Source of the DNA: a virus
Lineage: Duplodnaviria; Heunggongvirae; Uroviricota; Caudoviricetes
IMG/VR virus record: IMGVR_UViG_2695420651_000012
Reading direction: 5' to 3' (one strand)
Length of the DNA stretch: 5,462 bases
This document shows, piece by piece, positions 3,001-5,462 of this stretch. Position 1 is the stretch's first letter. Each line of letters starts with the position of its first letter. The position numbers are program-made.

Positions 3001-5462
3001 ACCGTAAGCCATGCCGTTCGACTGCCCGGCCAGTGGAATAACGTAGTAATAATCTGGCTCCGTGGTGACCACTCCCGGATAGCCACCATCCCCCGTGCCG
3101 GGCACAACCACTGGCGTGGTCACATCCCCCTCCGCGGCAATCGCCTGCATCAGGGTATAAGGGGTTATGGCCACAGGACTACCAAACGGCTGCCAGCCCT
3201 CTTTCAGTTTGTGTGTCAGCTTTTCCGCAAGATCTGACGGCGACGCCGCCCTGACAACATCATAATGTTTAATCGACATCGAATTTCTCCCGTGTACAGG
3301 AACAGAGTTAAAAAGCCGGAACCGGAATCAAATCACAGGATGACCATCTGCCAGTGGCTGGTCGTAAAAAAAAGGCCGCGCCATGCGCAGCCGGAAATAA
3401 AGGGATAACGATGATAGTTTGAGAAAAACAGAAATAACACTTTTGTGGCAAAGCATGGTGCCGGGTGCCTCCCGGTGAATTCAGTACCAGCACCTGAATC
3501 CGCGATTATCCCATATACCTGGTTGCTGATTGCCCCACCGCACAGGGGGATTCACCATGCAGTAGTATTTTTAATAAACAGTAAACAAAAAAATCAAGCA
3601 TTATGCAGGCTGTTTCTTTTTATCACCGGCCACAGCAATACCACAATGCCGCAGACCAGCCCCCCATCCGCCAGCACCGACATGATTCTGCTGGTGAAAT
3701 CCACCATCACCACCAGAAACAGCAGGAGTGCAGCCACAGCCAGGCGCAGTTTTACCGTCACAGGTGATTCTCCAGACGAAGCCCCAGAACACCGGCAATC
3801 TCTTCCAGCACCTTGCGCTCTTCCGGCTCAATTTCGCCGTCTGCCTCCGCAATGGCCACCGCCACATCCAGCACATCTTCCGCTTCACGCGTATCGTGTT
3901 TCACATCCTCGATCTCACGTAACGCCGCACGACGACCAATTTTAAAGTTCGTATCCAGCTGACCGATAATGGTTGCGCTAATCGCATTAATTTCTGACGT
4001 AAACGCGGACAGCGCTGGCTGATTACGCAGTACCTGTTCGATCTTCGCTTTCTAGGAAGCCTCACATTCACCATCTGCACAGGCCACCAGGTATGCGGCG
4101 TTAATCACCGCCTGTGCCAGATCGCGTTTCTCAAACTTTCCTTTTTCCGGTTAACGTGACACACCAATAACTCTTGTCGAAAAAGCCAGCAAGCTGAAAG
4201 ACCGGTATTCACAACCACCAGCGCGTTTACTGTACTGGCGTGATTTCAGTCATAAAAAAACCCGCCTGGCGACGGGTGTAAAAAATCTTCTAACGTCAGG
4301 CATAAAACGCCCATCGTTAGGGCAAATTTACCACAGATTCGGGAAAAATCAACAAAGCTATCTGGTCACCTTTTTCAGTTGTTGTTCTGCCCATGCTTCT
4401 TCAATATCAAACTGCACCACCAGCGTATCGTAAAAACGTTTAACTGTTTTTTTCCATGTATCAAGAGATATGGCATCGGTTACATTACATATGGCATTAA
4501 ATGCCTCCGTTGAAGGTAATCTTTCATAGCCACGACCACCACAACGCTGGCAGTCTCTGATAACAGGCATACCACGTTTTACCGACTCTTCACGATGAAT
4601 GGCAACACCGCGCCCACGACAATCTTTACAGGCGGTGGAAACCTCCCCCTTCCCTCCACACTCCGGACAGGCAACTTTTACCACCTCCCTGACTTTTTTC
4701 CATTCCTCCCAGTAAGACGGATACACGCCTTTTGTGCACTTTGCCCACACTGGCGGCTTACCATCCGGATACTGGATCTTGTTTGTAAAAACCTCGCTTT
4801 CAATAAATTTTTTTCCGTGACAACAGGGGCACTGTTTTTTGCTCGCCGCGCTACGGGCATAATCTTCAAACGCATACGAAGCCATAATACGCATCACTGC
4901 CGGTTTTATTTCTGCCGGGAGTTTTCTTAACGCCGCCACGCGATCACACCGACTGAGTGCATATTCTGTCAGCAATTCTGTTGCCCGCTCTCTGTCATTC
5001 ATACTAATGCCCATTTTCCCAAGGAACGCAGAAAACCCCATCTCAGCCCAATTCTGTGTCATGCCCTGCGCGGCCATCACATCAGTGATACTCAGCGTAT
5101 CTTTCGACGTTGAGGCCGATGCATCAGTCAGGCCGGGGGATTTTGGGGAGTAGTATTTCGGTAAATCTTCCAGTTTCATTTTTTGACCTGCCCTTCAAGC
5201 ATTATGGGGTAAATCTTCACCCCCAGACGTCCACCAGATACTGGCTGAGCACGAACGATATTGATTTCATCAAACTGCTCATCGTCCATTAGCAACCCCG
5301 CATGCGTCAGCGCATCCAGCGGCGCTTTCAGAATATTGTCCAGGTCACGGCGGCGCTTATCCGGTGGCTCGGCAATAATCTTTATCGCCAGCCTTCCGGA
5401 CAGGCTTAATTTCAGCCGCTGCTGGCGAACAATAAGCGCCACAGCCCGGCGATAACGCTCAC

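Follow-up and report, generated by a model that had tools for sequence, protein, structure and literature searches.

How ordinary is a lambda-type Q antiterminator with twice as many CxxC knuckles as lambda Q itself, and what might the additional segment do? The question is posed by a 5,462-nucleotide stretch of DNA from a virus of the class Caudoviricetes (IMG/VR record IMGVR_UViG_2695420651_000012; hereafter the window), the minus strand of which contains an open reading frame (ORF) for a Q protein of 273 amino acids. An original prediction, made from the sequence, held that this protein aligns at both ends with lambda Q, that its surplus length lies in the zinc-binding region, and that this region carries three perfect and one degenerate CxxCxGxG repeat, a DnaJ-type pattern in place of the single Cys4 finger of lambda Q; the arrangement was presented as an expansion that may change how the protein binds DNA or RNA polymerase. 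Here we report that the alignment, the location of the extra length and the repeats are all borne out, and that window Q is best read, with a probability we put at roughly 80%, as a standard and intact late antiterminator of the lambda-Q family, in the eight-cysteine form to which the majority belong.

The antiterminator, its family and its late-control cassette

Window Q is identical to WP_000762928.1, labeled "antitermination protein" in RefSeq. The Pfam family Antiterm (PF03589), with a cut-off of 26.7, scores it at 168.1 bits (E = 4.7e-50), and PHROG 127, "anti-termination protein Q-like", matches at 1.8e-112. Among PDB sequences, phmmer matched it to lambda Q (7ubm_Q, 207 amino acids; E = 9e-41). 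The alignment has two blocks, pairing residues 1-113 with lambda 1-113 and residues 182-273 with lambda 116-207, and identity over the two pieces is 40.8% by tblastn. Homology with lambda Q runs end to end, taking in both the N-terminal nozzle segment and the helical body with its helix-turn-helix, and the best PDB match of the full-length AlphaFold2 model in Foldseek is likewise a lambda Q chain (7ubn_Q; E = 9.8e-14; template-modeling score 0.74, target-normalized). In that model, residues 221-273 form helices at 223-233 and 239-272. The nozzle role, the definitions of body and arm, the contacts of the arm and the helix-turn-helix assignment are those published for lambda Q (PMC9388147).

With lambda Q (PDB 4MO1, 7UBJ-7UBN; PF03589), window Q thus shares a nozzle-forming N-terminus, a four-helix body with helix-turn-helix and a predicted Cys4 zinc-ribbon arm, and its gene, as in lambda, comes downstream of rusA/nin genes and before the lysis genes. 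It differs in having, at the hinge between body and arm (lambda 113/116), a 68-residue segment that lambda Q lacks (residues 114-181; Table 1). The net excess over lambda Q is 66 amino acids. This segment holds the first two (K1 and K2) of four CxxCxGxG-type knuckles, and the arm holds the other two (K3 and K4). Positions 4541-4831, originally given for the cysteine-rich insert, correspond to residues 117-213, from the first cysteine to the last; to include residue 217 the interval would have to extend to 4529. The contrast drawn with lambda Q stands in part. There is indeed a second pair of knuckles, but the single Cys4 site of lambda Q already consists of two CxxCxGxG knuckles, CRDCHGTG and CGRCKGVG, and the extra segment therefore adds one more pair and no new type of motif.

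All eight cysteines of window Q are invariant in an alignment of 49 sequences with identities down to 26%, which is far beyond chance. Residues of the predicted strands of the K1-K2 module are conserved as well (F125, I126, V130, F131, V163, E165 and V169), and the K1-K2 linker ranges from 10 to 59 amino acids across the family. In 35 divergent sequences the net charge of the module averages +4.2 and is never negative; that of the DNA-binding arm is +6.3. An origin of the module as an internal duplicate of the K3-K4 arm was considered and rejected: in a BLASTP comparison, insert and arm share only the 8-residue knuckle motifs. As a separate observation, K3 reads CxC (e.g., CRCHGKG) instead of CxxC in about half of the divergent members, including phi80, Fraca, YeP3 and many cluster representatives, an unusual spacing for a zinc knuckle.

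The eight-cysteine form is the common one. Exhaustive searching of 50%-identity cluster representatives with HMMER returned 229 members of the family. Full-length sequences numbered 41 (33 cluster representatives, seven phages and the window), and 35 of these have all eight cysteines, five have K3 and K4 only and one is ambiguous. WP_000762928.1 is the head of a 90%-identity cluster with 4648 members, whose name is "antitermination protein [Escherichia coli]". Of 5426 complete E. coli genomes, 2478 have an allele of the window type (at least 80% nucleotide identity and at least 80% coverage). For most of the homologues listed, precomputed Pfam assignments to both PF03589 and PF00684 (DnaJ_CXXCXGXG) are already on record. 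Of 249 matches among phage records, 131 align as one unbroken full-length stretch, i.e., the long form, and include phi80, mEp237, mEp460, Salmonella SE1, and phages of Klebsiella, Erwinia and Yersinia; the two-piece matches comprise lambda, HK97, HK022, P22-like and related phages. By alignment, K1 and K2 are present in the Q proteins of phi80 (269 amino acids), mEp460, SE1, mEp554, Fraca and YeP3 and absent from that of lambda.

The same architecture is found in well-known relatives. YdfT/QuuQ of E. coli K-12 MG1655 (b1559, Qin prophage, 250 amino acids) has four knuckles, and both it and phi80 Q (gp17) match window Q in the eight cysteines and in the order and spacing class of the knuckles, at only about 40% overall identity. 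The phi80 hairpin is of the same sub-type as that of window Q (FxExxVFTNK...GKPPxW...REVVRV), with K3 as CxC where window Q has CxxC; the YdfT hairpin is shorter, with a linker of 31 amino acids. Reportedly, phi80 Q has been used in hybrid DNA-binding studies (Guo and Roberts 2004). Length and motif set are thus the ordinary, already annotated state of the family and are not peculiar to window Q; this is the outcome that the original prediction had itself named as refuting it.

Directly 3' of the Q stop codon lies a putative late promoter, pR', whose hexamers were read off the sequence. It went unflagged in a generic sigma-70 promoter scan and was found through alignment with lambda pR', with which it has GGTAAATTTG in common. 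Its -10 element is identical to that of lambda, and so are the AACGAT element and its spacing; the spacer, presumed to hold the Q-binding element, has a different sequence in the window. At the pause region the window reads CCCTAACGATGGGC and lambda ACTCAACGATGGGT, and AACGATGGG (4318-4310) is identical in lambda pR' at equal spacing from the -10 element. The role of AACGAT as a pause element is that established for lambda pR'. A strong intrinsic terminator, putatively tR', follows about 65 nucleotides downstream of the predicted start, whereas in lambda the terminator lies about 194 nucleotides from the start. The order is rusA, Q, -10 element, AACGAT, terminator and, further downstream, a holin gene. 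Judged from sequence, Q gene, promoter, pause site and terminator make up what reads as a complete lambda-style late-control cassette; the assignment of AACGAT as a pause element follows PMC9388147.

By homology with lambda Q, window Q would bind a Q-binding element between the -35 and -10 elements of the adjacent pR' and engage RNA polymerase paused at the sigma-dependent pause element AACGAT. Together with NusA, its N-terminal 60 residues would form a nozzle on the RNA-exit channel, and polymerase would then pass the terminator at 4277-4253 and go on to transcribe the late region. Upstream, the end of a RusA-family ORF at 5176 overlaps the Q start codon by 4 nucleotides (ATGA-type; 5176-5179), which suggests that rusA and Q are translationally coupled.

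Table 1. Coordinates of the Q gene, the parts of its product and the putative late-control elements in the window
Feature	Position	Strand	Basis and remarks
Q antiterminator gene	4358-5179	minus	ORF list; 273 amino acids plus TAG stop at 4358-4360
Residues 1-61	4997-5179	minus	Residue-for-residue alignment to lambda Q 1-61, there the RNA-exit-channel nozzle segment
Residues 62-113, helical Q body, first half	4841-4996	minus	Alignment to lambda Q 62-113; AlphaFold2 helices 60-80 and 92-108
Residues 114-181, K1-K2 module, absent from lambda Q	4637-4840	minus	Gap in lambda Q alignment
Knuckle K1, CPCCHGKK, residues 117-124	4808-4831	minus	Translation; degenerate, last G replaced by K; C117 and C120 invariant
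Knuckle K2, CPECGGKG, residues 171-178	4646-4669	minus	Translation; C171, C174 and G176 invariant
Residues 182-220, lambda Q arm equivalent	4520-4636	minus	Aligns to lambda 116-154; holds K3 and K4
Knuckle K3, CKDCRGRG, residues 184-191	4607-4630	minus	Translation; C184 and C187 invariant
Knuckle K4, CQRCGGRG, residues 210-217	4529-4552	minus	Translation; C210 and C213 invariant
Residues 221-273, Q body second half and helix-turn-helix equivalent	4361-4519	minus	Alignment to lambda Q 155-207
Putative pR'	4325-4352	minus	TTGATT (4352-4347), 16-nucleotide spacer, -10 TAAATT (4330-4325); alignment with lambda pR'
AACGAT, -10-like sigma-dependent pause element	4313-4318	minus	6 nucleotides after the -10 element; lambda spacing and sequence
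Putative tR' intrinsic terminator	4253-4277	minus	Terminator scan; stem-loop ACCCGTCGCCAGGCGGGT followed by T7

Predicted zinc ribbons, the DnaJ resemblance and the origin of the module

We modeled window Q with AlphaFold2, once at full length (template-free, 55-sequence alignment) and once, independently, over residues 105-225; the mean predicted local distance difference test (pLDDT) scores are 80.5 and 81.3. Both models place K1, a strand at 125-136, a tip with two short helices, a strand at 159-170 and K2 in that order, so that one of the two 12-residue strands lies directly after K1 and the other directly before K2. The pLDDT of the module is about 70-88, with a variable hairpin tip. The models thus cast the K1-K2 module as a putative second zinc ribbon that bears a long beta-hairpin. 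Over 42-43 columns, the modeled K3-K4 part fits onto the lambda Q arm with a root-mean-square deviation (rmsd) of 1.6-3.7 Å and 37-38% identity, and the model accordingly places a Cys4 zinc-ribbon arm in window Q; K3 and K4 bind one zinc in the solved lambda Q structures (PMC9388147).

The most likely pairing of the knuckles is tandem, K1 with K2 and K3 with K4, because of the strand layout, the sharing of one zinc by K3 and K4 in lambda and the joint loss of K1 and K2 described below. Both zinc binding by K1 and K2 and the tandem topology are what we infer from the models. Searches of the BFVD viral structures returned only weak and uninformative matches, to small cysteine-rich phage proteins. 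As a further observation on the full-length model, 7ubn_Q, the NusA-engaged form of lambda Q, outranks the free crystal forms, with all 273 columns aligned; the N-terminal helices of the model may be close to the refolded nozzle state, although pLDDT is low at residues 1-30.

Two other ways of reading the extra segment have to be weighed, and the first takes the DnaJ likeness literally: the region would be a true DnaJ-type domain with interleaved zincs (K1 with K4, K2 with K3) and a protein-binding or thiol-redox role. In DnaJ the zinc centers are interleaved, with repeats 1 and 4 forming one and repeats 2 and 3 the other. The four-repeat pattern of the DnaJ central domain (PF00684) is present in window Q, and two zinc ions are predicted for it too. 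PF00684 scores 30.6 bits on the whole protein, under the gathering cut-off of 32.7, and 33.6 bits on the isolated region, covering K2-K4 only; the NCBIfam model DnaJ_bact, whose cut-off is 377, matches locally at 26 bits and matches the lambda Q finger about as weakly. The first Foldseek matches outside the Q family are DnaJA2, Streptococcus pneumoniae DnaJ and BSD2, at values that are not significant (E 0.43-2.7, template-modeling score 0.14-0.27, rmsd about 10 Å). When the zinc region was modeled alone and compared with the PDB, the DnaJ fold was rejected: the lambda Q arm was the only meaningful match, and DnaJ, BSD2 and UvrA were not significant. One homologue (P0029, 258 amino acids, Serratia quinivorans) bears the name "chaperone protein DnaJ" in NCBI/nr, which could be counted in favor of a DnaJ domain; presumably it is a misannotation driven by the CxxCxGxG repeats.

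What tells against this reading is the arrangement of the knuckles and the company they keep. K3 and K4 sit on the same zinc in lambda Q, and their modeled counterpart superposes on the lambda arm. K1 and K2 are lost as a unit, and the spacing between them reaches 59 amino acids in the family. A long insertion between K1 and K2 sets window Q apart from the DnaJ domain. On the predicted model, Foldseek values and K1-K2 strand pairing speak for a tandem arrangement and not for the interleaved, V-shaped two-zinc fold. Pfam detected no J domain, G/F region or DnaJ C-terminal domain in window Q, whose context is that of a DNA-binding transcription factor. We regard a true DnaJ domain as scarcely credible. 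Of the DnaJ-type pattern originally proposed, the motif and its weak profile match survive and the architecture does not; the resemblance is confined to the knuckle motif, and the region is not to be filed as a DnaJ domain.

The second alternative is that the lineage of the window gained an insertion, making its Q a derived expansion of a lambda-type finger with an unusual mode of binding DNA or polymerase. Such a gain would fit the clean excess of 66-68 amino acids over lambda Q at a single point, and the variation of the K1-K2 hairpin from 10 to 59 amino acids indicates some expansion within the module. The tree, moreover, is in effect unrooted: it was built by neighbor-joining from the regions shared with lambda Q and midpoint-rooted without an outgroup. 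Its topology nonetheless points the other way. The module, with its invariant cysteines, occurs on all major branches, in 35 of the 41 divergent full-length sequences, and phi80 Q and K-12 YdfT share the architecture. The four-cysteine forms are few and scattered, occupying at least four separate positions among eight-cysteine forms (lambda with P0216; P0168; P0184; P0270), and P0168, with four cysteines, is only 0.13 distant from the eight-cysteine P0132 over the shared regions. Each four-cysteine case is a clean removal from K1 through K2, in which K1 and K2 always go together and K3 and K4 stay. A gain in the window lineage therefore seems very unlikely to us. From the scattered positions of the four-cysteine forms, lambda Q looks to have arisen by deletion: the ancestor most likely had the module, which has probably been lost several times, once in the lambda lineage, leaving lambda Q as a reduced form. 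We infer this direction of change and do not regard it as proven, because the tree is midpoint-rooted and Q genes recombine; still, the term "expanded", as applied to window Q relative to lambda, probably has the polarity reversed.

The module at the hinge

The place of the module in the protein offers some clues to its role. In lambda Q, residues 61-113 and 153-207 make up the body and residues 114-152 the arm. A swing of about 75 degrees brings the arm to positions 11-13 of the binding element, and positions 1-4 are bound by the helix-turn-helix of the body; the tip of the arm contacts sigma region 4, and the contacts with the beta' zinc-binding domain come from residues 110-112, 117 and 122-126 (PMC9388147). 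The insertion point of the K1-K2 module, lambda 113/116, is thus at the hinge, amid the beta'-contacting residues and between the two DNA-contacting parts, the helix-turn-helix body and the arm.

In the mechanism we propose, K1 and K2 would hold a second zinc, with a long beta-hairpin, variable and positively charged, rising from this base, and the module would form a separate unit at the hinge between the Q body and the DNA- and sigma-contacting arm with K3 and K4. Speculatively, we favor an accessory contact with DNA or with the zinc-binding domain of polymerase, or else control of the hinge; equally speculative is the notion that the hairpin additionally contacts DNA between the body and arm half-sites, or the adjacent beta' zinc-binding domain. 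A more specific version, in which the K1-K2 ribbon is an ancestral third contact element of lambda-type Q, touching binding-element DNA or the beta' zinc-binding domain together with upstream DNA, is tentative, and we give it somewhat less than an even chance. If it were true, the structural model of loading built on lambda Q would depict a pared-down minority form and would miss part of the picture for about 85% of the family, among them the alleles behind stx2a expression in certain Shiga-toxin phages.

The module might also bind zinc and do no more than brace the hinge, with no specific contact to DNA, RNA or polymerase, dispensable and easily lost. Lambda Q and no fewer than three further lineages lack it and still function, or at any rate persist, and its hairpin tip is poorly conserved, variable in length and lower in pLDDT, all of which a mere brace would accommodate. 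Yet the strand residues and all four cysteines of the module are strongly conserved and the module is consistently basic, and a unit placed amid the beta'-contacting residues and the DNA-contacting parts of lambda Q would hardly be free of contacts. We consider a passive brace unlikely, though less so than either a DnaJ domain or a gain in the window lineage.

Several points weigh against the picture of window Q as an intact eight-cysteine antiterminator with an ancestral second ribbon. The pairing of K1 with K2 is drawn from secondary-structure topology and from analogy with lambda Q, and we found in the literature no metal content, structure or mutant of any eight-cysteine Q. The -35 element of pR' and the Q-binding element come from the lambda alignment only, and the spacer differs. 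Q genes are mosaic, and recombination could mimic repeated loss in a midpoint-rooted neighbor-joining tree that has no outgroup. Lambda Q functions without the module, which therefore is not essential to the core mechanism, and the positive charge of the module is only suggestive of contact with nucleic acid.

Genomic setting and significance

A prophage of E. coli O55:H7 RM12579 matches the window at 99.9% identity, and a 4-bp deletion and one substitution are all that separates the window from it. The deletion, at about 2092, falls in a gene for a SASA-family carbohydrate esterase (NanS-p-like; DUF1737, SASA and DUF6645) at 1346-3279 on the minus strand, which in the window is split into two overlapping ORFs (2062-3279 and 1346-2083) and in RM12579 is an intact coding sequence for 645 amino acids; the split may reflect either a sequencing error or a frameshift pseudogene. 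The interval from pR' to the esterase (about 3594-4080, minus strand) holds a small DUF3927 ORF (3594-3761) and fragments of a TerB-family gene (3758-3904 and 3901-4080); in near-identical genomes RefSeq lists the TerB gene as a pseudogene, interrupted by an internal stop. A full-length match to the small RNA STnc100 (Rfam RF02076; 3420-3586, minus strand; 99.6 bits against a gathering score of 47) also falls in the Q-dependent late leader region, followed by a terminator-like hairpin with a T-run (3392-3374, minus strand).

Positions 4137-5462 of the window are 99.5% identical in nucleotide sequence to the Stx2a-converting phage Stx2_EH1910 (LC567834.1, 5218-6543), where the identical Q protein and cassette precede a methylase gene, three tRNA genes and stx2AB. 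The similarity stops at window position 4137; the window itself contains no stx genes, and no tRNA genes of the kind found downstream of Q in Stx phages were found in it.

Nothing about this copy is new, since the window protein is catalogued and public annotation already records its DnaJ-like motif through Pfam. What changes is the perspective on the family. Literature on quuQ/ydfT, or on CXXCXGXG in connection with Q, yielded no description of a second zinc site, and within the literature searched the second zinc ribbon of most lambda-type Q proteins has apparently never been characterized. Textbook lambda Q appears to be the reduced form, and most of its relatives, among them the identical allele upstream of stx2AB, are predicted to carry a second conserved zinc ribbon at the very hinge about which the arm swings. 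This predicted ribbon marks a small, testable gap in a well-studied antitermination system, and may be of relevance to the control of Shiga-toxin expression.

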